From Gemmatimonadales bacterium (GTDB taxonomy: Bacteria > Gemmatimonadota > Gemmatimonadetes > Longimicrobiales > Gaopeijiaceae), in NCBI GenBank assembly GCA_020344755.1, contig CP070829.1:472973-536972 (forward strand): DNA of 64,000 nt, in the 5' to 3' direction. The translations under genes were made by a program, and so were the position numbers. The notes below the pieces were generated by a model, which worked only from the letters and a program-made list of their open reading frames with translations, was not told the DNA's origin and searched no databases. Below are positions 9,849 to 25,759 of this stretch, in pieces. The stretch's first letter is position 1; each line of letters begins with the position of its first letter.

Positions 9849-11129
9849 TTAGATTGTCCGCAGCCCCTCGTAGTGCTCCACGAGAGCGTCGCGCAGCACC
9901 TCCTCGAACGCCAAGAGCTCGAACCCGAGCTGGTCCGCCAGCGACTCGGCGAAGCGGCCTCGATGAAAGCAGCGTGCGAAGATGAGTGCCTCGGGCTCCC
10001 GAGCGCGCAACAGCATGGCCGCCCGGAAGTTGACCACCTCGGCGGAGGAGGAGAGCAGGTATACGGGATCGCCGTCCAGACCCGAAAGCTCGTCCCGCAC
10101 GCGAGCCCAGGTTCCCGGATCCTCCAGGTCGCCATCCACGGTGGAGTGGGCCAGGGTGTCCAGGGGGACGTCCGCTTCGAACTGCCGGATCTTCTGTTCC
10201 GCCTCCGCGTCCACGACCAGGATCCGCTCGATCTCGTCTCCCGCGGTGACGCGCAGGAGTTCCAGGATCGTCTGCGCGAATCGGCCGAACCCTCCGAGGA
10301 CGACCACGTCGCGGTATTCCGTTTCCTCGAAGTGTGGATGCAGGAAGCGCTCGTAGAGGTGGAGCGCACCGATGCGGTGGGTGTTGAAGACCAGAGGCTG
10401 GGATCGTCCCGACTTCGCCGCACGGGCCTTCTCGCGGACCATCCGGTTGACGGGCCGCAATAGGCTCAGGTCCGCCACGTGCACCGCGACGGGAAGGGTG
10501 GGACAGCGCTCGGTCGCGCCCCATCCCACGTCGAGGTTCACGAGATCGTCGTCGGTGACGACGATCATCCGCTCCGCCCTCTCCATCCCCAACAGACCGA
10601 GAGTCGCGGGGCGTCGGGCATCTGCGTGCAGGACCTGGACGCCGCCGAAGCGGTCCACCTCGCTCGTGTTGACCAGGCTCTGGAGATGATCCACCAGGAG
10701 CACGGGCGTATCCGGCTCCACTGCGCGGATCGCCTTGAGGTAGGCCAGGCCCACGGGTCCGGCCCCCACCAGGATCACGTGGTCCTGCAGGCTGCTGGCG
10801 TCCCGGGTCTTCGGCCGAAGAAGCCGCAGAACTGCCTCCAGGACCGCGGTGGTGGTGATGGCCGGCGCCAGAAAGTAGGCAACCCACAGGGCTGCGCGGG
10901 CCCAGACCGTCCCCCCGCTCGGGGCACCCAGGTCCAACCCGCCGAATACGAACAAGCCCGCCGCATAGTAGATCCAGGCCAGAATCGGCTCGTCCACAAG
11001 GCTCGCGATGCCGGTGGTCCCCACACCGCTCGCGATGGAGCCCAGCGTCAGCAGGAAGACGAGGATGACCCCCGCCATGCGTACGACGTTCCCGGTCGAT
11101 ACCGGCCGGGTCCGGCGTGGCGTGGTCAT
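9849..11129 (-). CDS. Two-TM channel-like protein with tandem RCK/TrkA-N domains
   Basis: ATG overlaps the upstream stop (ATGA). TM, pore-like WIYYAAGLFVFGGLDLG, TM; HVILVGAGPVG (GxGxxG); second domain VVVLGGFGRFAQ. Confidence 0.72.
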   Translation of the reverse strand: MTTPRRTRPVSTGNVVRMAGVILVFLLTLGSIASGVGTTGIASLVDEPILAWIYYAAGLFVFGGLDLGAPSGGTVWARAALWVAYFLAPAITTTAVLEAVLRLLRPKTRDASSLQDHVILVGAGPVGLAYLKAIRAVEPDTPVLLVDHLQSLVNTSEVDRFGGVQVLHADARRPATLGLLGMERAERMIVVTDDDLVNLDVGWGATERCPTLPVAVHVADLSLLRPVNRMVREKARAAKSGRSQPLVFNTHRIGALHLYERFLHPHFEETEYRDVVVLGGFGRFAQTILELLRVTAGDEIERILVVDAEAEQKIRQFEADVPLDTLAHSTVDGDLEDPGTWARVRDELSGLDGDPVYLLSSSAEVVNFRAAMLLRAREPEALIFARCFHRGRFAESLADQLGFELLAFEEVLRDALVEHYEGLRTI

Positions 11130-12055
11130 TCCTCCGGGCCCGCTTCGCCGCCGGGGCCACTCCGGGTAGACCGAAGGAGCTCCCGGACCCGATCCCGGTG
11201 CTCGCGCCGGACCCCGGCGATGAAGGGCCCCCTGTGACCCACGGGATCGATGGGGTGGCCGGCGAGGTCCACCACCTCCCCTCCGGCACCTCGAACCACG
11301 AGAAGTCCCGCCGCGAGATCCCACGGTGCCGCCTCCGCCGCCTCCCAGAGGTTGACGTAGGTGAAGTGGCCGCGGGCAGCCCCCAGCAGCGCCCACGACG
11401 GCGAACCACCGGGAGCCCGAACCATCCGGACCCGCTTTTCCCTCCACCCCTCCATCAGGGTGTCCAGGGCGTGCCCCGCGTGTCGGGCGGGATGGACGTT
11501 CACCAATACCGGCGACGCTTCGCCCGCGGCCTGGGGAAGATCCACGCCCTGGTGACCCTCGCCGAAGACGTCCAGACGAAGGAGCCGGCTCCTTTCGCCG
11601 GTGACGGCATAGCCAACCTCGCCCGTCAGTGGGCTCGCGATGAGCCCGATCCGGGGCTCGCCGTCTTCAAAGATGGTCATCACGCTGGCGAAGGTCTCCG
11701 TGTGACCGAGGTAGGCGTAGGTGCCATCGATGGGGTCGAGGACGACCGTCCATCCGGCCTCTTCCAGGCTTCCCCCGGTCTCCTCTCCCAGGAACGAGGC
11801 CCCCGGTGCGAAGTCCTTCAGCGCCCGGCGCACCAGGGCTTCGATCTCGGATTCCAGCACCGTGGTGGGGGATCCATCCGCCTTCACCTTGGAGACCGCC
11901 GCGTGCTCCGCCAGAAGTCGGATCCTCCCCGCCACCGACAGCAGGGCCTGCAACCCGAACTGCACCCAGGAATCGTCATCCAGGCTCCCCGGGGGCATGG
12001 ACTCTCCCGTCCGCGCCCGGGCCAGCGCATCTCGCTCCCGAAGCTGCAGGCTCAT
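11126..12055 (-). CDS. Inositol monophosphatase (FIG) family phosphatase
   Basis: FLGEE, VLDPIDGT and WDLAAG motifs; start 5 nt after the upstream stop. Confidence 0.88.
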   Translation of the reverse strand: MSLQLRERDALARARTGESMPPGSLDDDSWVQFGLQALLSVAGRIRLLAEHAAVSKVKADGSPTTVLESEIEALVRRALKDFAPGASFLGEETGGSLEEAGWTVVLDPIDGTYAYLGHTETFASVMTIFEDGEPRIGLIASPLTGEVGYAVTGERSRLLRLDVFGEGHQGVDLPQAAGEASPVLVNVHPARHAGHALDTLMEGWREKRVRMVRAPGGSPSWALLGAARGHFTYVNLWEAAEAAPWDLAAGLLVVRGAGGEVVDLAGHPIDPVGHRGPFIAGVRREHRDRVRELLRSTRSGPGGEAGPEE

Positions 12056-12060
12056 GGAGC

Positions 12061-14631
12061 TCACCCGGTCCTCGAGAGGAGGCGCTCGGCCACGTCGCCG
12101 GCGACCCGCCCTTCGTCGAGGGCCCGGGTCAGCCCCCGCTGGACCGCCTCGGCCTGGCCCGGAGGGATGCGGTTCAGCGTGGACGCATCCAGGGTCCACC
12201 ATTCCAGCTCCTCGAAATCACCCACGGGCTCGAAGAGATCCGGCACGGTCTCCTCCTCGCCGTCGAGAAGGTACTCCCGTACTTCGACCCAGGCGTGATC
12301 CGTCTGTCGCGGGTCGTAGGCATAGCCCTCATGGAGGTGTTCGATGCGACCACGTGGCCGCCACCCTGTCTCCCGCTCCATGACCCGCACGAGGCCCTGG
12401 TCGGAATCCTCGTCCGGAAGAAGGAATCCCTTCGGCAGTTCCAGCAGTGTCTCTCCCTCCCTGGAGCCCAGGAGGATCTCCAGGTCGCCGGTGACGGCAC
12501 TGGTCCGGAACACGACGCCCAACACCGAGGCATTGGCCCCCCAGAGGCCCAGGAGCCCTCGACCCGCCAGGCCGGTACGGCCCCTGGGGTTGAGGGGCCG
12601 GCCCTCCTCGTCGCGGAATCGCGCCGGTCGCTCCTTCAGCTCCCCCGGGTCCATCTCTTCCGGATCCGCCCACCCCGCGGGGTCCCGGTCCCGGCCCGCC
12701 GCCACCACCGAGGAATCCACGTGGTAGGGCGGGTCGTACCCTTCGCAGTCCAGGACCCAGAGCGACTCGTCGATGGAGATCCGTTGCCGGGGTGGGTAGG
12801 TGGCAGGCCGCTCGGCCCGGATCTTCAGGTGGAAGTCGTCCGCCACGAGGTTCAGGGCGATGGACTCGCACGACGAGAGGGCATAGGCCAACTGGGTCTC
12901 ATCGCACTCCCCGCGATCCCTGCGCTTGTCGAAGCTCAGCGTGTGCATGGCGTACCGCAGCAGCGCGACCCGGTACACGAGCCACTCGTCCTCCGCCTTC
13001 AGGGAGAAGCACTTCTGTCGAATGAGCCGGACCGTCGACAGGATCTTCCGGAAGCGCAGATCCCACTTGGCGAACTTCAGGGACTCGGGCAGCTCGTCGG
13101 CCGCCGCCGGAATCCGTTGATTCTGGAGGTACTCCTCGAATGCGCTCAGGCGGGGCAGGTCCTCCGGGTCGAAGGCCTTGCTCATGACGAACTTCACGTC
13201 GTTCTCGAGCTTGGCGAAATCCAGCTCCACGGGATGAACCGCGCTGTGGGTCCAGTCGATGAACCACACGTTGTCCCCGTCGTCGCAGATCACGTTGGCG
13301 AAGTTGAGGTCGCCATGCTGCAGGCATACCTCCGCAGGGATGGAGTCGGGGTTCCGTGCGACCAGCCGGATGACACTCGCCAACTGATCCAGGTCCACGT
13401 GCTCTTCCGTGAACCCGGACTCGGCCAGGTATCGGTGAATCAGGGTGCCGTTCTCCCGTAGCCAGACGAGCTGCTGCTCCGATTGAAGGCCCAGAGCACG
13501 AAACGGAGCGACCTGGCTTCTCTCCAGGGTGTTCTCGTAGAGCCGGCCGACCAGCAGGTCCAGGGATTTCTCGAATCGAATGAGAAAGTGCCGGATCGCG
13601 GCCTCGCTGTCTGCTTCCTCGAAGTGGTCCTGTAGGGTCACCGGCCGGCCCTCCATGGCGGCCAGCTCCATCCCCACCCCCAGGAGGTCCCCTTCGACCA
13701 CCGGGTAGCCGAAGGTGGGCACGTGCTTCCCGAGGAAGTCCTTGACCTGGTGGTATCCGTCCAGCTCGCGCCGCATCTGGGAGAAGTCGTCGATCTTGAT
13801 GACCATGGGCTCGGTGCGAGCCTCCCCCTTCCATCCATCCGCCAGGAAGAGCAGGCTGCCGCTGAAGCCACCGGCCAGGGCGCGGAGATGGGTCCGGGTC
13901 CAGTGCATGCAGATGAGCTGGACGATGCGCTGGGCATCCGGAGACATGCGCCCGCGGGCCTCCTCCGGTTCGATCCGGCAGGGCTGCCCGCTGGACGGGT
14001 CCACGTGGTTGGGATCGACCCCCGCCCACCGCGCTGCGGACTCCAGGTCCAGCACCACCTCCACCCCGGAACGGGGGAGATTGTGGCGCAGGGTGGCGAA
14101 GTGAGCCTCGGACGTGGCACTGCCCACCAGGTGGGGACAGACCGCCACACGCTCGAAACCGAGGACGGTGCGAAGGAACATGGCGATGGTCTGCACACGC
14201 TTCTCCGTGTGGCACCCCACCACCAGGAACTCCACGTCCGCCGATCCGGAACGCACCGTTTCCGCATCCACTGAAGCCGCACTCGCAATCGCCTCGATCA
14301 GCTCTCTCCAGGCGATCCGACCACGAGGGCAGGGAACCACGGCGGCTCCGGCCAGGAGGTCCTCCAGAGGCTCGACCCATTCGGCGAGCATTCCCTCGCC
14401 GGCGGATTCCTCCCCGCCTGCAACGGGATCCTCACGCAGGAGGATCACGCCGGCTCCGGTGGCATCCACCGCGGCTCGGAGCAGCTTCGGGAGCGGACCC
14501 TCGCCGTAGCGTCGCCCCCGCCCCATCAACCGGGCGATCTCTCCGGCTCCCAGGTTCGACGGGATGCCGTGGAATTGCCTCTCGGGGCTCAGGGCTCCCC
14601 GGACCAGGCTGTCTGCGATCACGATGTTCAT
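12061..14631 (-). CDS. Three-domain protein: isochorismatase-like / APH-type kinase / NUDT9-like ADP-ribose pyrophosphatase domain
   Basis: IVIAD and FLVVGCHTEKRV (cysteine-hydrolase-like); GGFSGS, VIKID, HGDLNFANV, WFIDW (kinase); YDPPY, WADP, NPRGRTGLAGRGLLGLWG, GYAYDPRQTDHAWVE (NUDT9 signature). Confidence 0.8.
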   Translation of the reverse strand: MNIVIADSLVRGALSPERQFHGIPSNLGAGEIARLMGRGRRYGEGPLPKLLRAAVDATGAGVILLREDPVAGGEESAGEGMLAEWVEPLEDLLAGAAVVPCPRGRIAWRELIEAIASAASVDAETVRSGSADVEFLVVGCHTEKRVQTIAMFLRTVLGFERVAVCPHLVGSATSEAHFATLRHNLPRSGVEVVLDLESAARWAGVDPNHVDPSSGQPCRIEPEEARGRMSPDAQRIVQLICMHWTRTHLRALAGGFSGSLLFLADGWKGEARTEPMVIKIDDFSQMRRELDGYHQVKDFLGKHVPTFGYPVVEGDLLGVGMELAAMEGRPVTLQDHFEEADSEAAIRHFLIRFEKSLDLLVGRLYENTLERSQVAPFRALGLQSEQQLVWLRENGTLIHRYLAESGFTEEHVDLDQLASVIRLVARNPDSIPAEVCLQHGDLNFANVICDDGDNVWFIDWTHSAVHPVELDFAKLENDVKFVMSKAFDPEDLPRLSAFEEYLQNQRIPAAADELPESLKFAKWDLRFRKILSTVRLIRQKCFSLKAEDEWLVYRVALLRYAMHTLSFDKRRDRGECDETQLAYALSSCESIALNLVADDFHLKIRAERPATYPPRQRISIDESLWVLDCEGYDPPYHVDSSVVAAGRDRDPAGWADPEEMDPGELKERPARFRDEEGRPLNPRGRTGLAGRGLLGLWGANASVLGVVFRTSAVTGDLEILLGSREGETLLELPKGFLLPDEDSDQGLVRVMERETGWRPRGRIEHLHEGYAYDPRQTDHAWVEVREYLLDGEEETVPDLFEPVGDFEELEWWTLDASTLNRIPPGQAEAVQRGLTRALDEGRVAGDVAERLLSRTG

Positions 14632-14640
14632 GGACGATCC

Positions 14641-16053
14641 CTAGAGAATGCAACCGGCGGAGACCAGCTCTTCGAGCTTGGCCGACTTGGTCGAGGCGAC
14701 CTCCTTGAGCACCCCGCGGAATTCCGGATAGTCCCCACGAAGCCGTTCGAAGTCGCCGGTGGACAGAAAGAAGACGTCGCTGTGCGTCGTGGCCTGCACC
14801 GAGCCGGTGCGTCGTTCGCCCAGCAGGAGCGACAGGTCTCCGAAATAGTCCCCGGCCTCGAGTCCGCCCAGGTGGCGGGCGCCTCCCTCCATGGTGATGG
14901 TCAGCTTCCCGCTGCTCACGAAATAGACGCCCGTGGCCACCTCCCCCTCCCGAACCACGAAGCTCCCGGGGACGAAGACCAGGGGTTGGAGCGACATGAG
15001 CAGAGCGTTTCGCAGGGCGGGCTCGGCGTGGCGGAAGAGGGGCACCTTCTCGATGAGCTCCCGCGTGAGATGGAAGACGACCTCGAGCCGGATGGGGTCC
15101 GGCAGGTCACGCAGGAACTGCTGGGTGCTCGACCCGCGATATCGCTCCCAGATGTACTCGTAGTAGTCCCGGATCTGACGCTGGAGAGGTTCAGGAAGGG
15201 CGCGGCTGCGCAAGTACTGGCTGACTCCGTCCGCCCGGTCCCAGAAGGCCGTCTTCGCTGCGTCGATGGAGCTCACCAGGGAGGCGATGCTCCCGATGAT
15301 GAGCGCGTACATGGAGGCCCCCAGCACCATCACCAGGATGGTGAAGGCATACTCCGCATTCCGCGTCGGCACGATGTCGCCGAAGCCCACCGTGGTGGTG
15401 GTGACGAAACCCCAGTAGAGGGAGCGCAGGTACTGGCTCCCCCGGTCCAACCCGTCGATCCCCGCTGCCACGGTCCAGGAGTCCCGGGGGAATCCTTCCA
15501 CCACCGCCACGAGGAACCACCCGCACGCGATCCAGTGGATCAGCAGGAACACGCCGATCACCAGCTTGCTGATCCTCAGGTAGCCCGTGTTGGTGCTGTG
15601 CAGGCGCTCCCACTGGCGGAACGCGCGGAGGAGGCGTTGGAGCCGAAGGAGCCGGGTCGTACGGAGCAGGAGCACCACCGGCACCCCCGCCACCGCGGCG
15701 CTCGACATCAGGAAGAGGGCATCCAACGGGACGACCCCAAGAAGGTCGGCGGAGAACCCGGACCGACGGTATCGGCGGACCACGGCCGCCGATTCGGTGA
15801 CCTCGCTGCCTCCCGCGCGAAAGGTCGTCCGGAAGTTCAGGAAGATGTCCGCAACGAAGAGGACATCCAGGAGGTACACGAGAAGGCTACCGCCGAGATC
15901 GACCTCCCGCACGAAGACGATCTGGAAGGGGACCACCAGCCCCGTCACCACCACGGCCAGGACGATGACGAGGTCCCACGCCGTTCTGAAGGTCGAGCGT
16001 TCCGGGATCAGGGGCACCGGCGGAGGGATGGCTTGGGCAGCCGCTCCGCTCAA
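14641..16053 (-). CDS. 6TM voltage-sensor K+ channel with C-linker and cyclic-nucleotide-binding domain
   Basis: TTG start overlapping the rsbV stop (TTGA) with a GGAGGG RBS; S4 LLRTTRLLRLQRLLR; filter TTVGFGDIVP; CNBD GDYFGDLSLL...RTGSV. Confidence 0.9.
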   Translation of the reverse strand: MSGAAAQAIPPPVPLIPERSTFRTAWDLVIVLAVVVTGLVVPFQIVFVREVDLGGSLLVYLLDVLFVADIFLNFRTTFRAGGSEVTESAAVVRRYRRSGFSADLLGVVPLDALFLMSSAAVAGVPVVLLLRTTRLLRLQRLLRAFRQWERLHSTNTGYLRISKLVIGVFLLIHWIACGWFLVAVVEGFPRDSWTVAAGIDGLDRGSQYLRSLYWGFVTTTTVGFGDIVPTRNAEYAFTILVMVLGASMYALIIGSIASLVSSIDAAKTAFWDRADGVSQYLRSRALPEPLQRQIRDYYEYIWERYRGSSTQQFLRDLPDPIRLEVVFHLTRELIEKVPLFRHAEPALRNALLMSLQPLVFVPGSFVVREGEVATGVYFVSSGKLTITMEGGARHLGGLEAGDYFGDLSLLLGERRTGSVQATTHSDVFFLSTGDFERLRGDYPEFRGVLKEVASTKSAKLEELVSAGCIL

Positions 16054-16382
16054 AAGCCCTCCAGCGCCTCGGCTTCGGACGGGAAGACCGCGAAGATGGT
16101 ACTGAAGCCGGAGATCTCGAAGACCTCGGCCACCGTCTCGTTCAGCCCGCACAGCCGCAGGTTGCCGCCTCCGCCGCGCAACTTCTTCGCCGTGGCCAGG
16201 AGGACCCGAAGGCCGGCGCTGGAGATGTAGTCCAGGTCGGAGAAGTCCACCAGGACCTTCACGGTTCCGGCCCCTATCAGGTCGTCGAGGGCCTCCTGCG
16301 CTTCGGGGGCCGTATTGGTGTCGAGATTGCCCTCGAACCGGACCACGGCGACACCGTCCTGCTCATCGTGTGAGATCTTCAC
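16050..16382 (-). CDS. rsbV: STAS-domain anti-sigma factor antagonist (RsbV/SpoIIAA-like)
   Basis: EGNLDTNTAP, VDFSDLDYISSAGLRVLL with the phospho-Ser retained, EVFEISGF. Confidence 0.88.
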   Translation of the reverse strand: MKISHDEQDGVAVVRFEGNLDTNTAPEAQEALDDLIGAGTVKVLVDFSDLDYISSAGLRVLLATAKKLRGGGGNLRLCGLNETVAEVFEISGFSTIFAVFPSEAEALEGF

Positions 16383-18088
16383 GTCTGCTCCTCGGTTGGT
16401 TCATTCGCCCCACCTTCGTGAGACAGGTACTTGACCAGCACGACCACATTCCGGTCGGTGCGCCGGGTATACGACGCCTCGTCCATGAGATTCTGGACCA
16501 GGTGGATTCCGAGTCCACCGATCTCGCGCTCTTCCAGCTCGAGCGCAGTGTCGGGCGAACTGCGGCCAAATGGATTGAAGGGATGCCCGTCGTCACTGAT
16601 GCGCACCGCGAGGCGATCGGGCGACAACTCGACTCGCACCTCGATGAGGTGCTCGGCCTCATCCTTGTAGGCATAGGAGATGACGTTGTTGAGGAGATCG
16701 TCGAAGACCAGCTTCATGCTACGGCGGACCTTCTCGGGCATTCCGTAGGCTGAAGCGAACTCGTCGAACGACCGGTTCACTCTCTCGATTTCCTCATACC
16801 GGTTCCCGACTTCGAGCTCCAGGACGTGCATCCCGGCAGCCCCACCCTCCCGGCCGGTGAACTGGACAGCCAGCACCGTCACGTCATCCGCCTGCTCCGC
16901 CTCGGCCTGGAACTTCCAGACGTCCTCGGTGGAGGCGGCCACGAGCTCTTCTACGGAGCCGTAGGCACGCGCTTCCAGGACGCGCACCAGGCGATCTTCC
17001 TCGTACAATGCCCCCGCGGGATCCATGGCCTCCGTGACGCCGTCCGTGTAGACGAAGAGGAAATCGCCGGACTGCAGCGACTCGGCGTCCTCCCCGTAGA
17101 CCAGTCCGTCCACGGCTCCCACCACGGGCCCGTGCCGAATCGCCAATCGTACCACCTCACCCGACGCGCGTCGCAGGTAGGGTGGATTGTGGCCGGCGTT
17201 GCAGTACGACAACTCGCCCGTCGTCACGTCCAGGATCCCCAGCCACAAGGTCACGAACATGGCCGAGTCGTTGTTCTCGGAGATCTCGTCGTTGACGTGC
17301 GTGAGGATGCTTGCCGGAGAGAAGTCGTTGGTCGCCCTGGACTTGATGAGGGTCTTCGTGACGGCCATGAAGAGGGCCGCCGGCACTCCCTTTCCGGACA
17401 CGTCTCCCACACAGAAGCAGAAGCGGTCCTCGTCGATGAGGAAGAAGTCGTAGAAGTCCCCGCCCACCTCGCGGGCAGGCTCCAGCGTGGCGAAGACGGT
17501 GAATTCGTTGCGGTGGGGGAAGGGGGGGAACTTCAGCGGGAGCATACTCATCTGAATGTCCCGGCCGATGTTCAGCTCGCTTTCCATCCGCTCCTTCGCC
17601 GTCGTCGTGCGACGCAGGTTGTCGAAGGATTCCTGAAGTTCCTGGTTCTTGACCGTGAGCTCCCGCATCAGGGCGTCGCGCCCCTTCTCTTCCACGGCGT
17701 CCCGCAGCTCGCGCTGACGGTGCGACTGCCTCGCCTGCGCCTCGATGTGGGGAAGGTGAAGGCTCATCCGGACGCTGGGCTCCCCGTCGACGCGCACGAT
17801 GTGCACGGCATCGAAGAATGCCTCTGCCACGGAGTGGTCCATTCGCCCACCCACGCCCACCAGGTCCAGCACGAACTCCGGTTCGGTCCCGTCCAGGCTC
17901 AGGTGCACGTCGATGCGACCGACCTGCTCGATGCGGTTGGCCGCCCTGAAAAGCTCGGAGGTGACGGCCGCGATCCGCGTGGCGAGCATCGGATCGCTGG
18001 TCAGGTCCTGCAGGAGCCTTCGGATCTTGCCCCGTGCCTCGGGAACCGAGCCCTCGGCTCCACCCAGGATCGTCCCGAGATCGATCAC
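16379..18088 (-). CDS. SpoIIE/PP2C phosphatase (RsbU-like) fused to a C-terminal HATPase (RsbW-like)
   Basis: ESELNIGRDIQMSMLP, VGGDFYDF, GDVSGKGVPAALFM, YTDGVTEA, DDVT; then NVISYAY, DDGHPFNP, GGLGIHLV. Confidence 0.9.
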   Translation of the reverse strand: MIDLGTILGGAEGSVPEARGKIRRLLQDLTSDPMLATRIAAVTSELFRAANRIEQVGRIDVHLSLDGTEPEFVLDLVGVGGRMDHSVAEAFFDAVHIVRVDGEPSVRMSLHLPHIEAQARQSHRQRELRDAVEEKGRDALMRELTVKNQELQESFDNLRRTTTAKERMESELNIGRDIQMSMLPLKFPPFPHRNEFTVFATLEPAREVGGDFYDFFLIDEDRFCFCVGDVSGKGVPAALFMAVTKTLIKSRATNDFSPASILTHVNDEISENNDSAMFVTLWLGILDVTTGELSYCNAGHNPPYLRRASGEVVRLAIRHGPVVGAVDGLVYGEDAESLQSGDFLFVYTDGVTEAMDPAGALYEEDRLVRVLEARAYGSVEELVAASTEDVWKFQAEAEQADDVTVLAVQFTGREGGAAGMHVLELEVGNRYEEIERVNRSFDEFASAYGMPEKVRRSMKLVFDDLLNNVISYAYKDEAEHLIEVRVELSPDRLAVRISDDGHPFNPFGRSSPDTALELEEREIGGLGIHLVQNLMDEASYTRRTDRNVVVLVKYLSHEGGANEPTEEQT

Positions 18089-19224
18089 GAGCCCAACTTA
18101 CAGACGACGACCGTGGCATCGTCGTGGCGCTTGCCGTACTGGGAGACCAGCCGGTCCGCAACGGTCTCCACGCCCTGGTACCGGAGCTGAGGGTAGTCCT
18201 CGAAGTCTGTGCGGTCCGAGATCCCGTCCGTGTGGATGATGAGGACGTCGTCCGGATTCAGCTGAGCTGTCTCGACCCGGGGCGTCTTCACCTGGACACC
18301 GACGGTGCCGGGCATCGAGCCCATTCGTTGTGACGTCGCACCCTGGATCCGGAACACGGTGTTGCCGATGGCGGCGTGACGAACGGTGCCACTCGACAGG
18401 TCGATCCAGCAGACCGAGACCGCCGCACCCACGGTATCTTGGAGGCGATCGTGCAACCGCGTCATGACATGGGCCAGGTCCGGGCTCCCGTGGCTCCTCA
18501 GATGGCGGGTCGCTGCCTTCGCCGCCAGGTGCGCCGAGCGTCCGTGCCCGAGCCCGTCCACGACGCCGATGAGCACCCCGCCCTCCACCTCGGTCACCGA
18601 TACCGCGTCGCCGCTCACCATCTCACCCCGACAGGGCCGATTGACGTGGGCGACCTGCAGGGTGACGCCTGGAGCGACGGAGCTCGGGAAGGACCGGGAA
18701 CCCCGAAGCGTGCCCCGCTCCGCCAGGCGGGCAGTGCCCGTGAGGGCATCCGAGCCCAGACGCCTTCTCACCCGCGCTCCGGACGGCTGGAGCCACTTGC
18801 GGACCACGACGCGTGTCCCTACCCCCACGGTCGATTCGATGTCGAAGTCGTCCATCATCCGCCGCACGCCTGGCAATCCGAGCCCCAGGGTCCCGCTGGA
18901 ACTGAAGTGATCCTGCAGCGCTCGCTGGACGTCATCGATCCCGGGTCCCCGGTCCGACACCGTGATCTGGATCCCCCTGCGTCGCACATCCTGCACTTCC
19001 TCCAGCATGACCGATCCATGCGTGGCGTACTTCAGGATGTTCGTGGCCAACTCGGACACCACCGTTCCGAGGGAGCGGCTCTCGGTGTCCGTGAATCCCA
19101 TGCCCTTCGCAAGGTCCGTGGCAGAAAGGACTGCGTGGTGCACGTCCCCCTCCGCCCGGATTCTCACCGACCGCCGGACTCGGGCCTTATCGTCCACGGC
19201 GTGCCCTGCGCCCGCGTAGCTCAC
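18085..19224 (-). CDS. rsbT-rsbX: RsbT kinase / RsbX phosphatase fusion
   Basis: SELATNILKYA, DRGPGI, TLGLGLPGVRRMMDDF; then SGDAV, VDGLGHG, HTDGISD, DDATVVV. Confidence 0.88.
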   Translation of the reverse strand: MSYAGAGHAVDDKARVRRSVRIRAEGDVHHAVLSATDLAKGMGFTDTESRSLGTVVSELATNILKYATHGSVMLEEVQDVRRRGIQITVSDRGPGIDDVQRALQDHFSSSGTLGLGLPGVRRMMDDFDIESTVGVGTRVVVRKWLQPSGARVRRRLGSDALTGTARLAERGTLRGSRSFPSSVAPGVTLQVAHVNRPCRGEMVSGDAVSVTEVEGGVLIGVVDGLGHGRSAHLAAKAATRHLRSHGSPDLAHVMTRLHDRLQDTVGAAVSVCWIDLSSGTVRHAAIGNTVFRIQGATSQRMGSMPGTVGVQVKTPRVETAQLNPDDVLIIHTDGISDRTDFEDYPQLRYQGVETVADRLVSQYGKRHDDATVVVCKLGS

Positions 19225-19667
19225 GCCTCGGGATCATCCGTCTCCACCTCTTCCCCCAGGTCCTCGGACGCACCCTCTTCGGTCACCTCACCGGAGTTCC
19301 GGTTGCGCATCTTCTCGAAGGCGTCGTCGAGGGTCGCCGTGGCGATCACGCCTTCGGTATCGATCCCCAGATCGATCAGGGCCGACACCACGCCCGCCTG
19401 AAGTCCCGAGAGGACGGTCGACGCTCCCATGAGGTGGGCCATCCGCATGGTATCGCGCAGGGCCCGGAAGTCGGCGGCGTCCATCACGTCCACCCCGGAG
19501 AGGTCGAGGATGACGCCCCGCGCGCCGGACGACCGCACGAACTCCAGCAACTCGTCCCGGAATGCGGCCAGCACCCGGTCGTCGAGATCGATCTGAATCG
19601 ATGCCACGACGCATCCCTGCGCCACCTGCAGTGGAATCCTCGCCCCGGCGTCGAGTCCCCGGCTCAA
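19221..19667 (-). CDS. rsbS: Stressosome STAS scaffold RsbS
   Basis: RIPLQ, VASIQIDLDD, GVILDLSG, LMGASTVLSGLQAGVVSALIDLG; located between rsbR and rsbT. Confidence 0.88.
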   Translation of the reverse strand: MSRGLDAGARIPLQVAQGCVVASIQIDLDDRVLAAFRDELLEFVRSSGARGVILDLSGVDVMDAADFRALRDTMRMAHLMGASTVLSGLQAGVVSALIDLGIDTEGVIATATLDDAFEKMRNRNSGEVTEEGASEDLGEEVETDDPEA

Positions 19668-20575
19668 CGGCCCCGCCCACCCGCTCGGCCAATGGCACCC
19701 ACCGCGTCGGCCAGCGCGTCCCGCATGGTCGCGGTGGTATTCACCTCGCCGACGTCGATCCCCAGGTCGACGATCGTCTGTGCGATGGCCGGCGATACCC
19801 CGGAGATGGTGGTCTCACACCCCATGAGCTTCGTCGCTCGGGTGATCTTGATGAGGTGGTTGGCCACAGCCGTGTCCACCACGCCGACACCGCTGATGTC
19901 GAGAATGAAGACCCGGGCCTGGGTCTCGGCGATCTTGCCCAGAGTCGCGTTCATGATCTCCCGGGAGCGGCGGGAGTCGATGATCCCGACGACCGGGAGA
20001 AAGAGCAGGCCGTCCCAGATCTCCGTCACCGGAGTGGACATCTCCATGAGGGAGCGGGACTGCGCGGTCAGCGTCTGTTCCACCAGGTGGTTGTAGGTGT
20101 CCACCACGATGGCCGTGTCGAAGTGGAGCAGCTTGATGACCGAGTCCAGGATCGCAGCACGCTCTTCGTCCGCGAAATTCCCTTCCCGGACTACCATGCT
20201 GAACAGCTCCTGGAACATGTTCATGCCGGCGAAATAGGTGTTCAACGGGAGCCCGATCCGCGCGTGCGCCTCTCCCACCACGGCCCGCCGCTGCACGTAC
20301 TCGTTGTCGACCGCGCCGTCCATGAAGAACTCCCAGTAGGAGTCCTGCAGCCGCTGGACGCGTTTGAGGGTCTCGGGGTCCGAGAAGAACTCGTCGTAAT
20401 CCGGGTGGTTTTCGAGCCAGTCGTACCATCGCTGCACCAGCTCGTCCATCCGGGCCAGGGCCTCGGCGCCGAACCTGCGGATTCTCTCCAGGTCCTCGTC
20501 GCTGATGCGATACAGCTCGAGGAGTTCCCTATGGTCGAGGTGGGTCGGGGTGGCAAAGTCATGCGGATGGTTCAT
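19664..20575 (-). CDS. rsbR: RsbR with N-terminal protoglobin/sensor globin domain and C-terminal STAS
   Basis: GAGGA RBS; globin helices with proximal GEAHARIGL; STAS MSTPV, LDISGVGVVDTAVANHL. Alternative start at 20623. Confidence 0.88.
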   Translation of the reverse strand: MNHPHDFATPTHLDHRELLELYRISDEDLERIRRFGAEALARMDELVQRWYDWLENHPDYDEFFSDPETLKRVQRLQDSYWEFFMDGAVDNEYVQRRAVVGEAHARIGLPLNTYFAGMNMFQELFSMVVREGNFADEERAAILDSVIKLLHFDTAIVVDTYNHLVEQTLTAQSRSLMEMSTPVTEIWDGLLFLPVVGIIDSRRSREIMNATLGKIAETQARVFILDISGVGVVDTAVANHLIKITRATKLMGCETTISGVSPAIAQTIVDLGIDVGEVNTTATMRDALADAVGAIGRAGGRGR

Positions 20576-20632
20576 GGATTCCTCACGTTGGCTTCTCGAT
20601 TTCCGGGCCGGGGGCACGTTCATTCGGTTCCA

Positions 20633-22504
20633 TCAGTCGGCTTCCCCCGTGGCGACCTCGATGGCGTCCCTCAGTGACCGGGCCGTGGCGATTCCCGACA
20701 TGGTTTCGGGGTGGTCGGCCAGATCGGCGGCGAGTTGGGGACGCAAGCCGGACAAGATCACCTTGGCGCCCATGAGCCGAGCCGCCTGGGCTACCAGGGC
20801 CAGCTCGTCCGCCACCTCGGGATCCAACCGGGACACCCCTGTAAGGTCGACGATGACGCAGCGATCCCCTCGTTCGTGCAGGCGGTGGGTGAGAGAGTCG
20901 CGGATCCGCTGACACCGGGACCGGTCGAGCTCTCCCACCAGGGGGAGCACCACCACGTCGTCGTGTATGGGGATCAGCGGGGTGGAGAGGGCCTCGATGG
21001 ACCTGTTCTGACGGTCGATCAGGTCGCGCAGCGACACGCGCATGGACTCGAAGCTCCGGGCCAGGTCCCCCACCTCGTCCCCACGGTTCATGTCCACGGG
21101 CTGATCCAGCTCACCGCCGGCCAGGGCGTTCGCCGTGACCGACAGGGCCTGGATGGGCCGAACGAGATTGCCAGAGAACCAGTAGGCCAGGAGAGCGAGA
21201 AGGGGGATGAGGACCACCAACGCGACCGCCATTCGACGACCGAGTGTTCCGACGGCGGACATGGCCTCGGCGACGTCGATCTCGCTCATGATCACCCAGT
21301 TCAGGTCCTGGATGTCCAGGGGCCGGAATGCCGAAAACACCTCCACGTCGCGGTAGTCCCTGAAACGGGACTCGCCGGTCTCACCGGCGAGGGCCCGGCT
21401 CACGCCTTCCGTGCGGGCGGGCTGAAGTCCCACCGCACTCTCCTGGGCCTCGATGGATCGCACGACGGTCTCGTCGATCCCGGCCGCCCGGATCGCGGCG
21501 AGATATCCTTCCCGCTCCTCGATGAGGAATCGAGACTCCGTCCGCAGCGTCTCGTCCGGTCCCACCAGGTAGGCCTCTCCCGTCTCTCCGAAGCCCACGG
21601 ACCGCCACGCGCCTCCACTGGTCATGGTCTCGTTGATCCGGCTCAGTGGCATCTGGAAGACCAGGGCTCCCAGGACCTCGCCCTCCTCCACGACGGGGGA
21701 GGCAATGAAGGAGGCCGGGGCTCCGTAAGAGGGAAGATAGGGACGGAAGTCTACGAGCCGAGCGTCGGACGCTGCGGGGAACCCCATCGCCGCCGCGGAG
21801 ACGTCGGCGAGACTGGACTGGCGGTGGGGCCCCGCCGAGAGAGAGGTCCCGAAGTCCACCTCCTTGAAGACGGAGTAGACGATCCGGAGGTCGGTAGCGC
21901 TCACCAGGAAGAGATCGTAGTAGCCGAATCGCTCCAGGAACTGTCGAAGGAGCGGGTGGTAGCGCGCGTGGGCCTCGTCGTAGCGGGTACCCGCATCCGA
22001 AGCGTCCAGGAGGTGCTTGAAATCCAGGGCGTAGGGGTTGTCGCCGATGTAGAGGTGCTGCAGCGACAGGGCCACCGGGTCCTCGGGCCAGTACCGCGAC
22101 AGGGGCCCCGGATCGTCCACGCTGGCCTCGAGTCGGGGATAGAACTCGTTCTGATAGTGGACTCTGACTTCACGTTCCACGTCCGGGGCGGACAGCTGCC
22201 TCGCTGCGAGTTCCTGCTCCAGCGTCGCGGTGGCCGCCGAGAACTCCCGTAGGGCCGCGACCACCATCCGGTCCTCCGAGAGCGTCACCAACTGGTCGCG
22301 AATCGTCTGGAAATAGTCCTCGATCTGTTGGCCCTTGAGCTCCCGTGCTGCGGTGAGTTGGTCGATGGCCTGCTGCTCCAGGGTGCGGACCCCGAGCCGG
22401 TACGACACGACAGCCATCGTGCCGATGGACACCAGCGTGACCAGCGCCAGGACCGAGAGCACCCGGACCCGGATCGATCGGTCACGCTCGAAGGAGCCGA
22501 ACAT
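20633..22504 (-). CDS. Membrane-anchored RsbR paralogue (TM-dCache-like-TM-HAMP-STAS)
   Basis: Two TM segments around a large extracytoplasmic domain (GYYDLFL, DFRPYLPSYGAPASFIASP, GETGEAYLVG); HAMP RGDEVGDLARSF; STAS LSTPLIP...LSGLRP. Confidence 0.85.
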   Translation of the reverse strand: MFGSFERDRSIRVRVLSVLALVTLVSIGTMAVVSYRLGVRTLEQQAIDQLTAARELKGQQIEDYFQTIRDQLVTLSEDRMVVAALREFSAATATLEQELAARQLSAPDVEREVRVHYQNEFYPRLEASVDDPGPLSRYWPEDPVALSLQHLYIGDNPYALDFKHLLDASDAGTRYDEAHARYHPLLRQFLERFGYYDLFLVSATDLRIVYSVFKEVDFGTSLSAGPHRQSSLADVSAAAMGFPAASDARLVDFRPYLPSYGAPASFIASPVVEEGEVLGALVFQMPLSRINETMTSGGAWRSVGFGETGEAYLVGPDETLRTESRFLIEEREGYLAAIRAAGIDETVVRSIEAQESAVGLQPARTEGVSRALAGETGESRFRDYRDVEVFSAFRPLDIQDLNWVIMSEIDVAEAMSAVGTLGRRMAVALVVLIPLLALLAYWFSGNLVRPIQALSVTANALAGGELDQPVDMNRGDEVGDLARSFESMRVSLRDLIDRQNRSIEALSTPLIPIHDDVVVLPLVGELDRSRCQRIRDSLTHRLHERGDRCVIVDLTGVSRLDPEVADELALVAQAARLMGAKVILSGLRPQLAADLADHPETMSGIATARSLRDAIEVATGEAD

Positions 22505-22516
22505 CCGAGCGACGGC

Positions 22517-22918
22517 TCAGACCCGGTCCACCCGGACGCGACCCGCGGGCAGGGTCACGTACCAGACCGGCTCCGTAATCACCGATTCCACCGGGTAGAG
22601 AAGGCCGTCCTGGTCGAGGACGTCACCCAGCCGCACCGCGACGGTCACCCGTCCCTGGTCGCGCCACTGGCTGTCGGGCCGGAGGGCGAATGCGACCCCC
22701 GGGCCGACCTGGCTCGCCACCGTGCCGTACCCCCCACCGTAGACGTCCACCACGGCCTCCGACGGATCCGGATTCGCCGACATCCACCACCCTCCCGAGG
22801 ACTCGTCGAGCTCGAGGAAGTCTTCCAGCGTAGCTCGGTACAACACCGTTTCGGCGTCGAGACCGTGGGCCTCCAGGGTCTCCGAGAGGATTCGTTCCGT
22901 TTCGGGTTCGTGTGGCAT
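22517..22918 (-). CDS. Hypothetical protein (133 aa)
   Basis: Fills the gap between flotillin and the membrane RsbR, 12 nt from the next start; GC3-rich codons. Confidence 0.7.
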   Translation of the reverse strand: MPHEPETERILSETLEAHGLDAETVLYRATLEDFLELDESSGGWWMSANPDPSEAVVDVYGGGYGTVASQVGPGVAFALRPDSQWRDQGRVTVAVRLGDVLDQDGLLYPVESVITEPVWYVTLPAGRVRVDRV

Positions 22919-22984: not shown

Positions 22985-24286
22985 CTAATCCAGCTCCTTG
23001 GGAAGATCGCCAGCCTCCTTGGCCCCACCACCCGACCCCAGCCGGGCCAGGTCCACCCCCGTGGCGTTCTTCATCTGTTCCATCATGCTGACCGCCGATC
23101 CCGTGAGGTTGCGGACGTAGTTGGGGAGCCCCTCTCCACCGGCGTCTCCGCCGCCATCGAGGATCGTGAGCTTGTCGATGCGGAGGTTCTCCGCGACTAC
23201 GCGGGTGACCTTGTCCACCAGATCCGGGAACATGCGGATCATGAAGAGATCCTGGGTCGCCCCACCGTCCCACTCTTCCCGCATGAGGTGGACGGCCTCG
23301 GCCGTGGCCCGTCCCTCCTCACGAATCCGCGCCGCCCGTCCCTCGGCCTCGAGCCGGTCGGCTTCGGACCGCGCCCGCGCGGGAATGATGGTGTCCGCCG
23401 AGTGGCGCTTCTCGCTGAGTTCCGCCCGGCGAGACTCCAGGTCGACTTCCCGGTCCACGCGGGCGATTCGCCCTGCGACCTCCGCGCGCTCGCGCGCCTC
23501 GTTGGTCTCGGCTTGGAGGTTTGCACGCTCCACCTCCAGGGCGTTCTCCTTCTCGATCACCTGGCGCTCCGCCGCGATCTCCGCCTCCCGACCGAGGCGC
23601 TTCTGCTCCGCGGACACCTGCCGTGCTTCGGCGTCCGCCTGGGCCTCGGCGATGCGGGCGTCCCGCTGAACCTCCGCGTTCCGCTTGCGCCCGATGGCCT
23701 CCAGATATCCCGCCTCGTCCGAGAGATCCTGGATCTGGAAGAAGTCCAGGACGATGCCCAGTCCCGAGAGCTCCCCGCGCGCCCTCGCGGTGACCTCCTG
23801 CGCCAGATCGAGGCGACGCTCGTTGGCCTCCTCCGGGCTCACGCCGGCAATGACACCCCGGAGCGCGCCTTCGAGCACCTGCTGGGCAGTCTTGTCGATG
23901 GCCTCGACCCCCTTGCCCAGGAACCGCTCGATGCCTGCCTCCAGCCCCTCGTCCTCTCGGCCCGCCAGCTTCACATTCGCCTTCCCCTCGATGTCCACGG
24001 GAATCATCCCGCGGCACAGCGCCTTGTGGGGCCGGACCTGCACGGTTCGGGTAGTGAGTGGGAGCCGCATGGCCGACTCCAGGAGGGGCCATTTGAATCC
24101 CCGCCCCCCCCGAATCAGGCGATAGCCCACCACGGTTCCATCCTGGGTCTTTCGCTTGCGACCCGAGATGATCACCACCTCGTTGGGCTGGCAGATCACG
24201 ATGTTGGCCTTGATGAAGATCACCAGGGCCAGGATTCCAAAGGCCCCGATCCCGAGATAGATCCCGATCAGCTGTGCTTGGTCCAT
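22985..24286 (-). CDS. Flotillin / SPFH (band 7) protein
   Basis: N-terminal TM, PNEVVIISGR, LEGALRGVIA, IQDLSDEAGYLEAIGRKRNAEV, Ala/Glu-rich coiled coil. Confidence 0.9.
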   Translation of the reverse strand: MDQAQLIGIYLGIGAFGILALVIFIKANIVICQPNEVVIISGRKRKTQDGTVVGYRLIRGGRGFKWPLLESAMRLPLTTRTVQVRPHKALCRGMIPVDIEGKANVKLAGREDEGLEAGIERFLGKGVEAIDKTAQQVLEGALRGVIAGVSPEEANERRLDLAQEVTARARGELSGLGIVLDFFQIQDLSDEAGYLEAIGRKRNAEVQRDARIAEAQADAEARQVSAEQKRLGREAEIAAERQVIEKENALEVERANLQAETNEARERAEVAGRIARVDREVDLESRRAELSEKRHSADTIIPARARSEADRLEAEGRAARIREEGRATAEAVHLMREEWDGGATQDLFMIRMFPDLVDKVTRVVAENLRIDKLTILDGGGDAGGEGLPNYVRNLTGSAVSMMEQMKNATGVDLARLGSGGGAKEAGDLPKELD

Positions 24287-24306
24287 GATGAGCCCTTCGG
24301 AAACGG

Positions 24307-25743
24307 CTACGTGTTGAAGTAGAGGGAGAACTCGCCCGGGTGCGGTCGAAGCCGGACGAAATCGATCTCGTTCTGACGCTTGTATTCGACCCAGGTCTCG
24401 ATGAGGTCGGGCGTGAAGACGCCGTCCTGCACCAGGAAGTCGTGGTCGGCCTCGAGCGCGGTGATGGCCTCGTCCAGCGAACCGGGTGTCCGCTCGATGT
24501 CGGCGCCCGCCCCGCTGGCCGCCAACTCGTAGATGTCTTCGTCCACCGGGTCGGGCGGCTCGATGCGTCTGCGAACCCCGTCGATCCCCGCACACATGAT
24601 GGCGGCGAAGCTCAGGTAGGGATTACACGACGGATCGGGCGTGCGAAACTCGATGCGTTTCGACTTCGGTCCCCCGGTCATGGTGGGGATGCGAATGCAG
24701 GCGCTCCGGTTCCGACCCGAGTAGAGGAGGTTCATGGGCGCCTCATAGCCCGGCACCAACCGCCGGTACGAATTGGTGGTCGGGCAGCAGATCCCGCACA
24801 AGGCCCGCGCGTGGGCCAGCAGCCCTCCGACGAAGTGCAGGGCCACCTCGCTGAGATCACCGTAGCGGCCCGCCTCGTAGAAGACGTTCCGTCCGTCTTT
24901 GGACAGGCTGATGTTGTGGTGCATTCCCGATCCGTTCTCCTGCAGGAGCGGCTTGGGCATGAACGTCGCCGTCTTCCCGAACCGGTTCACGACGTTCTTC
25001 ACCACGTACTTGTACTTGATGGCCGCATCGGCCTGCTGCAGGAGGGGCCCGAAACGGAAGCCGATCTCGCACTGGCCGGCCGCACCGACCTCGTGATGAT
25101 GCAACTCCGGCTGCAGCCCCACCTTCTTCAGGACGTGCGAAATCTTGGACCGGAGGTTGTTGTACTGGTCCACCGGCGGGGCCGAGAAGTACGCCCCCCG
25201 CTGGGCGGCCCGGTGTCCCAGGTTCGGGTCGTCTCCCTTCTCGCCGGTGGACCACGACGCCGCAGAGCTATTCAGGAAGAAGTACCCGTGCTGCGTGGCC
25301 TGGTCGAAGCGTACGTCGTCGAAGATGAAGAACTCGATCTCCGGGCCGAAGTACGCCGTGTCGGCGATCCCCAGCGAACGCAACAGGACCTCCGCCCGCC
25401 GCGCCACGGACCGTGGATCCCGGGAGAAGGTGTAGCGCCCGTTGGGGTCCACGATGTCGCAGAACACCGAGAGCGCCGGATCATCGAAGAAAGGGTCCGC
25501 GAAGACGGATGCGGGATCCGGAATCAGGAGCATGTCGCTCTGGTTGATCCGCGTGAATCCCCGGACCGACGACCCGTCGAAGGCCATCCCGTTCCGGAAG
25601 AGCGCCTCGTCCACCATCTCCGCAGGCAGGGTGAGATGCTGGAGGGTCCCCAGGAGGTCCACGAACTTCAGGTCCAGGAATTCGATCCCCTCGTCGTTGA
25701 TCCTGCGAACCACGTCTCGCGCGCTGGTGGGGCGATTCGGCAT
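24307..25743 (-). CDS. glnA: Glutamine synthetase type I
   Basis: FDGSSVRGF, FGPEIEFF, HHEVGAAGQCE, TFMPKP...NGSGMHH, RLVPGYEAP, NRSACIRIP, RIEFRTPDP; adenylylation Tyr retained in DIYEL. Confidence 0.97.
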   Translation of the reverse strand: MPNRPTSARDVVRRINDEGIEFLDLKFVDLLGTLQHLTLPAEMVDEALFRNGMAFDGSSVRGFTRINQSDMLLIPDPASVFADPFFDDPALSVFCDIVDPNGRYTFSRDPRSVARRAEVLLRSLGIADTAYFGPEIEFFIFDDVRFDQATQHGYFFLNSSAASWSTGEKGDDPNLGHRAAQRGAYFSAPPVDQYNNLRSKISHVLKKVGLQPELHHHEVGAAGQCEIGFRFGPLLQQADAAIKYKYVVKNVVNRFGKTATFMPKPLLQENGSGMHHNISLSKDGRNVFYEAGRYGDLSEVALHFVGGLLAHARALCGICCPTTNSYRRLVPGYEAPMNLLYSGRNRSACIRIPTMTGGPKSKRIEFRTPDPSCNPYLSFAAIMCAGIDGVRRRIEPPDPVDEDIYELAASGAGADIERTPGSLDEAITALEADHDFLVQDGVFTPDLIETWVEYKRQNEIDFVRLRPHPGEFSLYFNT

Positions 25744-25759
25744 GGTCGGCTCCCCTCTC

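Follow-up and report, generated by a model that had tools for sequence, protein, structure and literature searches.

What would a NUDT9-type Nudix domain do in a bacterium once its active site has decayed, and does it serve the ion channels encoded beside it? The question is raised by a 64,000-nucleotide stretch from a Gemmatimonadales bacterium (assembly GCA_020344755.1, contig CP070829.1, positions 472,973-536,972 of the forward strand), referred to here as the window. In vertebrates, TRPM2 is the standard example of a Nudix hydrolase that became a non-catalytic sensor of ADP-ribose (ADPR), and the bacterial domain belongs to the same family, shows the same active-site loss and is attached to a kinase. 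The original prediction from this DNA took the NUDT9-like stretch for a gene of its own, lying between two channel genes, and read the arrangement as a split form of ADPR-gated channel logic. The peptides quoted in that prediction are all present in the minus-strand translation of positions 12061-14631. The stretch itself, however, is the C-terminal ~30% (residues ~601-856) of an 856-residue open reading frame (ORF), here termed KinNudix, and although both channel genes are nearby, a gene for an inositol monophosphatase (IMPase)-family phosphatase separates KinNudix from the second.

KinNudix is present in single copy in the source genome and has Pfam matches to TCAD9 (91.9 bits), APH and NUDIX. 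The reading favored here, to which we assign about an even chance of being right, is that its NUDT9-homology (NUDT9-H) domain is a non-hydrolytic sensor of an ADPR-type ligand, mounted on a kinase/phosphatase module that would form the output of a stress-responsive partner switch and be linked to ion transport.

The NUDT9-homology domain

Assignment to the NUDT9 family, as originally proposed, is borne out by similarity far above chance. In phmmer searches of the PDB, the last 279 residues give E=1.1e-13 with human NUDT9 (1q33) and E=2e-8 to 2e-6 with the NUDT9-H domains of TRPM2. A family profile built from 61 homologues brings the NUDT9 match to 7.8e-23, spanning both subdomains (residues 14-271 of 292), and gives 2.5e-19 for the choanoflagellate TRPM2 and 3.7e-17 for the human one, with the next Nudix protein reaching only 4e-5. 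Precomputed Pfam annotation places PF25969 (NUDT9_N) and PF00293 on every member of the KinNudix family. The WADP, NPxGRTGxxGRGxLGxWGxN and DPRxTDxAW signatures are present, and their core residues are invariant in all 61 homologues. The NUDT9 motifs cited in the original prediction (NPAGRTGLVGRGLLGRWG, REFGEE and DDPRNTDNAW) all appear in the HMMER alignments, which set RVMERE of KinNudix opposite RILRQE of human TRPM2 ('lvrvmere' versus 'lkrilrqe') and REFGEE of NUDT9.

Conservation was counted residue by residue over the 61 homologues, which come from several phyla, and residue roles were transferred through HMMER alignments from choanoflagellate srTRPM2 (PMC11479946) and human TRPM2 (PMC5299621). 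W1264 and F1372 of srTRPM2, which stack on adenine, correspond to W654 and to F736 in the Nudix box region, while D1426 and R1428, which contact the terminal ribose, correspond to D773 and R775; these four residues are found in 61/61 sequences, as are E741 and R749 of the Nudix box. The catalytic Mg2+ holder of srTRPM2, E1386 (I1405 in human TRPM2), aligns with V750, a position occupied by Val in 52 homologues, Ile in seven, and Leu and Thr in one each, and by Glu in none. At position 753, equivalent to E1389 and the first Glu of the 'EE' pair, Glu occurs in only 2/61. E754, equivalent to E1390, is better kept (Glu in 50 and Asp in seven, i.e., acidic in 57/61), and position 805, which aligns with the catalytic base D1460, is Asp or Glu in 44/61. 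The ribose-binding Asp of srTRPM2, D1330, aligns with position 704, which is Ala in 50/61 and Asp in none. The KinNudix family thus departs from the canonical Nudix box GX5EX7REUXEEXGU at the Glu of 'RE' (0/61) and the first Glu of 'EE' (2/61), and the TRPM2-style degeneration first noted in the window's protein, with an aliphatic residue in place of the 'RE' Glu, is a family-wide property.

Invariant adenine and ribose residues, together with the absence of the Mg2+-holding Glu from all 61 homologues, argue that the family retains the ADP-ribosyl clamp, that most of its catalytic metal site is gone and that the terminal-ribose pocket has been remodeled. A change of REF to RIL lowers NUDT9 activity ~100-fold, and chimeras carrying the human NUDT9-H box are all inactive (PMC8145809). 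By analogy, the equivalent substitutions predict that KinNudix has lost ADPR pyrophosphatase activity or suffered a drop of at least ~100-fold. The replacement of Asp by Ala at position 704 hints at a ligand with a substituted terminal ribose, such as phospho-ADPR or NAD(P).

The N-terminal and kinase domains

The N-terminal domain (N-domain, residues 1-238) is modeled by AlphaFold2 (AF2) with a mean per-residue confidence (pLDDT) of 92.8. Its top 50 Foldseek matches in the PDB are without exception isochorismatase-like and include many PncA nicotinamidases (E ~5e-5, TM 0.64-0.71). The segment G139-C-H-T142-E-K-R145-V matches GxxTxxCV, with the catalytic Cys replaced by Arg145 (Arg in 54/61). 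PF00857 is not detected in KinNudix even at E<=10 and is found in sister families, whose N-domains carry Lys or Arg in place of the Cys and keep a nicotinamidase-like RDWH…HC.xGTxGAEF signature that the window's lineage has lost. By sequence and predicted fold, then, the N-domain is a nicotinamidase-fold pseudoenzyme. A TRPM2-like SLOG/MHR1-2 identity was also considered and dismissed: full-length Foldseek alignments of 508-724 columns have root-mean-square deviations >38 Å and are uninterpretable, and the isolated N-domain model matches isochorismatase/PncA folds only.

The kinase domain exceeds the Pfam cut-offs for TCAD9 (cut-off 40) and APH (31.6 bits; cut-off 23.2), with further matches to Choline_kinase and, weakly, to RIO1. 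Its nearest folds by Foldseek are maltokinase, APH(3'), LicA and YtaA; searched alone, the domain has no sequence-level match in the PDB. The kinase looks active because its catalytic set, comprising the GGxSGS loop, K279, E289, H439-G-D441, N446 and D459, is invariant (61/61). A search of the domain against 1.84 billion cluster representatives returned 395 matches, 56 of them at E<=1e-30, which describes a small family.

Architecture variants and origin

More than 380 full-length KinNudix homologues, at 52-100% identity, were collected. Relatives with other architectures bear on how the module may work. P0251 (1014 residues; L098:3214-6258, contig JBCBWO010000009.1 of GCA_039817085.1) combines HATPase_c_2, N-domain, kinase, NUDT9_N and NUDIX in one chain, within the gene order FHA-PP2C, STAS, P0251, IMPase. 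This fusion argues that the RsbW-like domain acts on the kinase-Nudix protein, in the place usually taken by a sigma factor. In a second variant, P0273 (627 residues, on 22 contigs; L101:6001-8764, also L102-L104), N-domain and kinase are found with no Nudix domain; an overlapping IMPase gene follows, and neither a partner switch nor a channel is nearby. Kinase plus IMPase therefore looks like the persisting core of the system, with the NUDT9-H domain as an accessory. In a more distant sister family (P0323, P0325 and P0336), a Pfam-detectable isochorismatase domain, a TCAD9 kinase and a C-terminal DSP-PTPase domain share one chain, and no IMPase gene adjoins; judged from these gene and domain arrangements, a phosphatase accompanies the TCAD9 kinase in trans or in cis. 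The DSP-PTPase domain of one 778-residue sister protein (L099:257-2593) is recognized by the Pfam families PTP-SAK and Tc-R-P and, more weakly, by PTP-NADK.

One apparent KinNudix-IMPase fusion, P0243 (1228 residues), was rejected. BLAST similarity ends at residue 634, beyond which come Arg-rich sequence out of frame and two IMPase fragments; on this evidence, P0243 is a frameshifted mis-call over two genes in high-GC DNA, and a caution for automated architecture counts.

Stand-alone bacterial NUDT9-like proteins (262-300 residues, from Desulfuromonas, Geobacteraceae and Syntrophotaleaceae) retain RELxEETG, AADP and G[SD]DA. In a tree confined to the kinase-fused domains and canonical bacterial and vertebrate NUDT9, the fused domains group as a single clade (SH-aLRT 100) on a long stem (1.2), apart from the canonical bacterial and vertebrate proteins. 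The TRPM2-like degeneration thus appears to be ancient within the KinNudix family. The separate clade and the different fusion partners favor convergence with TRPM2, the loss having most likely arisen independently of the animal case. Two candidates for free-standing degenerate NUDT9-H proteins, P0128 and P0130, were discarded, as both start inside the kinase C-lobe; P0130, from a long-read assembly with many fragmented genes and with no kinase upstream, is taken to be a truncated remnant or an artefact. Another protein, P0194 (372 residues, on a 1450-nt ENA contig), joins a thiol-peroxidase/AhpC-type domain to a shortened degenerate NUDT9-H domain (…RVLEEDSGW…, DPRQTDHAW). The contig is a lone, short one and possibly chimeric; if it is real, the sensor domain may also be tied to oxidative stress.

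Among 121 sampled genomes of the window's phylum, only the source genome itself has a KinNudix gene. Homologues at 50-57% identity are labeled Gemmatimonadota, Planctomycetota, Myxococcota, Acidobacteria, Desulfobacteraceae and Fimbriimonadia, a patchy cross-phylum spread that suggests a mobile accessory cassette. The locus occurs in estuary, sediment and mangrove metagenomes.

Gene neighborhood and synteny

Conservation of neighboring genes was examined over 96 related loci from genomes and metagenomes, with neighbors scored by tblastn and ORF clustering and checked against Pfam. The most constant partner is the IMPase gene, which is downstream in 55/63 testable loci and present in 28 of the 29 loci of at least 10 kb. 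PP2C and STAS genes each occur in 22 of the same 29. The input domains of the PP2C proteins vary, from a stressosome in the window to GAF or REC elsewhere and FHA in L098, and the downstream module stays constant, which places the kinase and IMPase pair at the output end of the switch.

Ion transport genes are a looser association. A CNBD (cyclic nucleotide-binding domain) K+ channel occurs in 10/29 loci of at least 10 kb and a homologue of the window's RCK protein in 5/29; a CNBD channel homologue is directly upstream in 11/48 testable loci, among them loci whose kinase protein is just 40-57% identical. At other loci, Pfam confirms a Kef-type Na_H_Exchanger+TrkA_N protein and a Na/Pi cotransporter, each encoded directly upstream, as well as SulP-STAS-CNBD, NhaP-type exchanger+TrkA_N and MscS+CNBD proteins. 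In KinNudix operons, genes of a stressosome or partner switch thus stand together with genes for the transport of K+, Na+/H+ and sulfate/anions and for mechanosensitive transport. At least one of six ion-transport classes is found in 17 of 26 loci of at least 10 kb, and just two CNBD ORFs exist in the 4.1-Mb source genome, one of which is the upstream neighbor of KinNudix; the ion-channel association in the original prediction is, on these counts, non-random. The link to ion transport is real but facultative, and those to IMPase and the partner switch are much tighter.

The window itself (Table 1) has on its minus strand the gene order AmtB, PII, GlnA, SPFH, an ORF without Pfam match, dCache-HAMP-STAS, protoglobin-STAS, STAS, HATPase+PP2C, PP2C+HATPase_c_2, STAS, CNBD K+ channel, KinNudix, IMPase and RCK protein. 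An operon structure is inferred from the gene spacing, and the start of the RCK protein gene overlaps the IMPase stop codon (ATGA, -4 nt). No sigma-factor domain is found among the window genes between 9849 and 28293 or in the recurrent neighbor clusters examined. The IMPase gene scores under every NCBIfam equivalog cut-off and matches generic family members only.

Table 1. Position and assignment of KinNudix, its domains and motifs, and the genes around it
Feature	Coordinates	Strand	Basis or remark
KinNudix, three-domain ORF, 856 aa	12061-14631	minus	ORF list; stop codon 12061-12063 included
N-terminal domain, residues 1-238	13918-14631	minus	isochorismatase/nicotinamidase fold (AF2 + Foldseek)
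APH/TCAD9-type kinase domain, residues 239-600	12832-13917	minus	Pfam + Foldseek + residue conservation
NUDT9-homology domain, residues 601-856, NUDT9_N cap + Nudix core	12064-12831	minus	PDB matches, Pfam
WADPEE	12655-12672	minus	includes W654
NPRGRTGLAGRGLLGLWG	12505-12591	minus	translation
Degenerate Nudix box GFLLPDEDSDQGLVRVMERETGW	12361-12429	minus	translation
RVMERE within Nudix box	12370-12387	minus	translation
DPRQTDHAW	12289-12315	minus	includes D773, R775
Membrane protein with TrkA-N/RCK domain and non-canonical pore-like segment (…LFVFGGLDLG…)	9849-11129	minus	Pfam TrkA_N
IMPase-family phosphatase	11126-12055	minus	Pfam Inositol_P 103.7 bits; ATG 5 nt past KinNudix stop
CNBD K+ channel (Ion_trans + cNMP_binding)	14641-16152	minus	Pfam; stop 9 nt before KinNudix ATG; true start possibly internal
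Single-domain STAS protein, RsbV-like	16050-16382	minus	Pfam STAS 84.5 bits
PP2C (SpoIIE) + HATPase_c_2 (RsbW-like) fusion	16379-18088	minus	Pfam
Stressosome-type genes: HATPase+PP2C, STAS (RsbS-like), protoglobin-STAS, dCache-HAMP-STAS (RsbR-like)	18085-22504	minus	Pfam
HATPase (RsbT-like) then PP2C (first of the preceding group)	18085-19224	minus	
133-aa ORF between SPFH and dCache-HAMP-STAS genes	22517-22918	minus	no Pfam match
SPFH/Band-7 protein	22985-24595	minus	
Glutamine synthetase	24307-25899	minus	

Several further features of these neighborhoods are worth recording. The HATPase+PP2C protein has its two domains in the reverse order to those of the adjoining PP2C+HATPase_c_2 protein, so that two kinase/phosphatase fusions stand in tandem. 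The SPFH/Band-7 and glutamine synthetase genes are upstream of the switch in the same orientation; in unrelated loci, too, the kinase gene has SPFH genes (7 loci) or GlnA-like genes (4-5 loci) in its vicinity. The Kef-type and Na/Pi genes found directly upstream elsewhere (L014:5719-7980, L089:1284-3539 and L072:712-2304) share a C-terminal region of ~150 residues (…MTS..G.G…R..YL……LL….N..RL..LFG..G.NY), which has no Pfam match and is the cause of their joint clustering. The selectivity filter of the window's CNBD channel reads TVGFGD, and that of relatives at other loci TVGYGD. The cyclic-nucleotide cassette of the same channel, FGDLSLLLGERRTG, has Asp where Glu is usual, and this form is kept in kinase-adjacent channels (FGDLSLLLGE[RK]RTA). 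The odd phosphate-binding cassette was considered as a sign of a ligand other than a cyclic nucleotide; the K+ channels share the form, the CNBDs of SulP and MscS proteins are unmatched by the simple pattern, and the idea was dropped.

A proposed mechanism

The favored reading, of a non-hydrolytic sensor on a kinase/phosphatase module, starts from domain identities, residue conservation, synteny and the P0251 fusion, all of which can be seen directly; what ligand is bound, which substrate is used, which way control runs and how transport is affected we infer as follows. The NUDT9-H domain would bind ADPR or a close derivative without cleaving it, and would either hand this ligand to the kinase or set the activity of the kinase allosterically. 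The kinase and the IMPase would have opposite actions on a small phospho-sugar or nucleotide, and the partner switch, fed by the stressosome, would turn the module on or off in the sigma factor's stead. The output of the module would then tune channels and transporters with nucleotide-binding regulatory domains; the setting would be an estuarine or sediment bacterium under ionic stress.

A more specific version of this scheme, which we regard as a long shot, has the kinase and the IMPase making and destroying a new phosphorylated nucleotide of ADPR type or derived from NAD. The NUDT9-H domain would hold the substrate or sense the product, the switch would act through the RsbW-like domain, and the nucleotide would be the ligand of the CNBD and RCK domains on K+ channels, Kef/NhaP, SulP and MscS proteins. 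If true, the scheme would amount to a new second-messenger route of bacteria, leading from the sensing of stress to ion homeostasis, with a TRPM2-like way of working that was built independently.

A number of points weigh against the reading of KinNudix as a non-hydrolytic ADPR-type sensor. Slow hydrolysis may persist, given that E754 and, in 44/61 homologues, an acidic residue at the catalytic-base position are kept. The ligand is deduced from conserved residues only and may be something other than ADPR itself, the equivalents of Asp D1330 of srTRPM2 and His H1346 of human TRPM2 not being conserved. The P0273 lineage, which pairs kinase with IMPase and does without NUDT9-H, would mark that domain as accessory, and within the AF2 model of NUDT9-H the core has a pLDDT of ~80 and the cap is of low confidence (35-65). 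The kinase loop, HGDLxxxN, occurs also in RIO-type protein kinases, and the RIO1 match, if weak, is there. Most of the loci are metagenomic, with operons predicted from gene spacing only, and channels are absent from ~40% of well-sampled loci. The whole proposal is built on sequence and predicted models, and literature searches on TCAD9, bacterial NUDT9 fusions and stressosome-channel links found no paper on the KinNudix family.

Alternative explanations

KinNudix could instead be a protein kinase that acts on STAS, RsbW/PP2C or transporter domains, with its pseudoenzymes as allosteric sensors and the IMPase adjusting the ligand pool, for example by removing the 2'-phosphate of NADP or phospho-ADPR. 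We consider this unlikely, though it has real points in its favor: the gene is set in a protein-phosphorylation cascade of PP2C, STAS and HATPase proteins, an RsbW-like domain is fused to one homologue, RIO1 is matched weakly, and the DSP-PTPase superfamily represented in the sister family includes protein phosphatases. Against these, every one of the closest folds is that of a small-molecule kinase (maltokinase, APH, choline kinase, CotS-like), and the catalytic loop, HGDLNFAN, is without the Lys of eukaryotic protein kinases. The near-obligate partner is a translationally coupled IMPase, and the pair persists in the P0273 lineage with no partner switch nearby. To our knowledge, the characterized members of the IMPase family all act on sugar or nucleotide phosphomonoesters.

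The reading with which the locus was first presented, in which the NUDT9-like protein would sense ADPR as a detachable subunit and would bind and directly gate one or both adjoining channels, as a split TRPM2, is now improbable. It is consistent with the TRPM2-style decay of the box around a retained ADPR clamp, with the closeness of the CNBD K+ channel gene (9 nt upstream) and its recurrence there down to 40% identity of the kinase protein, and with the adjoining position of one of the only two CNBD ORFs of the genome. Within the kinase-fused clade, however, the domain is never free-standing, apparent short forms being truncated gene calls, and an intact kinase is joined to it in every case. 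Its constant partner is the IMPase (28/29) and not a channel (10/29), and the P0273 sister lineage has kinase and IMPase with neither Nudix domain nor channel. The channels own ligand sensors of the CNBD or RCK type, and six unrelated transporter folds are hard to square with a single docking interface. What survives of the original prediction is its core idea, a catalytically dead, TRPM2-style NUDT9 sensor encoded near channels; direct gating is not supported, and there is no specific sign of channel binding.

We likewise put little weight on an ordinary role in NAD or ADPR salvage, in which the Nudix domain would still act as a pyrophosphatase of ADPR or a related nucleotide sugar, if a slow one, the kinase would recycle the ribosyl product, and the link to signaling would be incidental. 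Sources do name the family 'ADP-ribose pyrophosphatase', E741, R749, E754 and often an acidic base remain, and all three domains stem from NAD-recycling enzyme families. Bifunctional Nudix fusions, moreover, occur in NAD metabolism. Weighing against salvage are a nicotinamidase-fold domain without its nucleophile, a patchy spread (1/121 genomes of the phylum) unlike that of a housekeeping enzyme, and the ties to the partner switch, in synteny (22/29) and by domain fusion. The Mg2+-holding Glu is absent from every homologue, and the equivalent change disables both NUDT9 and human NUDT9-H (PMC11479946, PMC8145809). The database name is probably wrong.

That the NUDT9-like domain binds no ligand and is purely a structural or dimerization scaffold for the kinase is hardly credible, for although the P0273 lineage does without it and its cap is poorly modeled, exactly the adenine-stacking and ribose residues are invariant (61/61) across phyla on a fast-evolving long branch, which points to a maintained pocket.

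Significance

Should the favored sensor-on-kinase reading hold, KinNudix would offer a tractable bacterial model of NUDT9-type pseudoenzymes that read ADPR-type metabolites. It would also give a defined non-sigma output to partner switches, whose non-sigma targets are mostly unknown, and might bring to light a new small-molecule signal, the product of a kinase/IMPase pair.

Comparison with known systems

The kinase domain recalls the vWA-MoxR ternary conflict systems (Kaur et al. 2020, PMC7159879), in that its TCAD9 score clears the cut-off (91.9 versus 40 bits). The match differs in falling mainly on the C-terminal third of the profile, and vWA, MoxR and VMAP genes are absent from the neighbors in the window and from the recurrent neighbor clusters checked with Pfam. 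An anti-phage defense system was considered and set aside: PADLOC has no match for KinNudix, the IMPase, the RCK protein or the PP2C-HATPase protein, and the channel shows generic CNBD similarity only.

The regulatory genes resemble RsbU-RsbV-RsbW and the SypE/SypA system of Vibrio fischeri, with PP2C, an RsbW-like HATPase and STAS together, variable inputs and no sigma factor in the recurrent neighborhood. SypE/SypA is reportedly a partner switch with a non-sigma output. KinNudix loci differ from switches of that type in having a kinase flanked by pseudoenzyme domains, plus an IMPase, as the conserved downstream genes; a partner-switch output of this kind was not found described in the literature searched.

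Human mitochondrial NUDT9 (1q33/1qvj) is the best sequence and profile match to the C-terminal domain, with which it shares WADP, NPxGRTGxxGRGxLGxWGxN and DPRxTDxAW and the Pfam pair NUDT9_N and NUDIX. NUDT9 and its stand-alone bacterial homologues (e.g., P0201 and P0206) differ in being free-standing enzymes with a canonical REUxEE, the Asp of AAD and the GDD base.

The comparison with human TRPM2 (PDB 6mix/6puo) is the most instructive. Its NUDT9-H domain is of the same family (profile 3.7e-17) and has the same cap and core; RVMERE stands against RILRQE, the Mg2+ Glu is replaced by an aliphatic residue in both, and the DPR ligands of ribose and phosphate (D1431 and R1433 in the human protein) are retained. 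In both, a hydrolase has presumably turned nucleotide sensor, binding by KinNudix being a prediction only. The differences are as telling. The bacterial domain sits on a kinase and not on a TRPM channel polypeptide, the channel being a separate gene at about one third of the loci. KinNudix retains the Trp and Phe for adenine stacking, both lost from human TRPM2 (PMC11479946), has Ala for the ribose-binding Asp, and has canonical bacterial NUDT9-like enzymes as its nearest relatives. What is new at this locus is an uncharacterized kinase/phosphatase signaling module with a bacterial NUDT9-H pseudoenzyme of probably independent origin.

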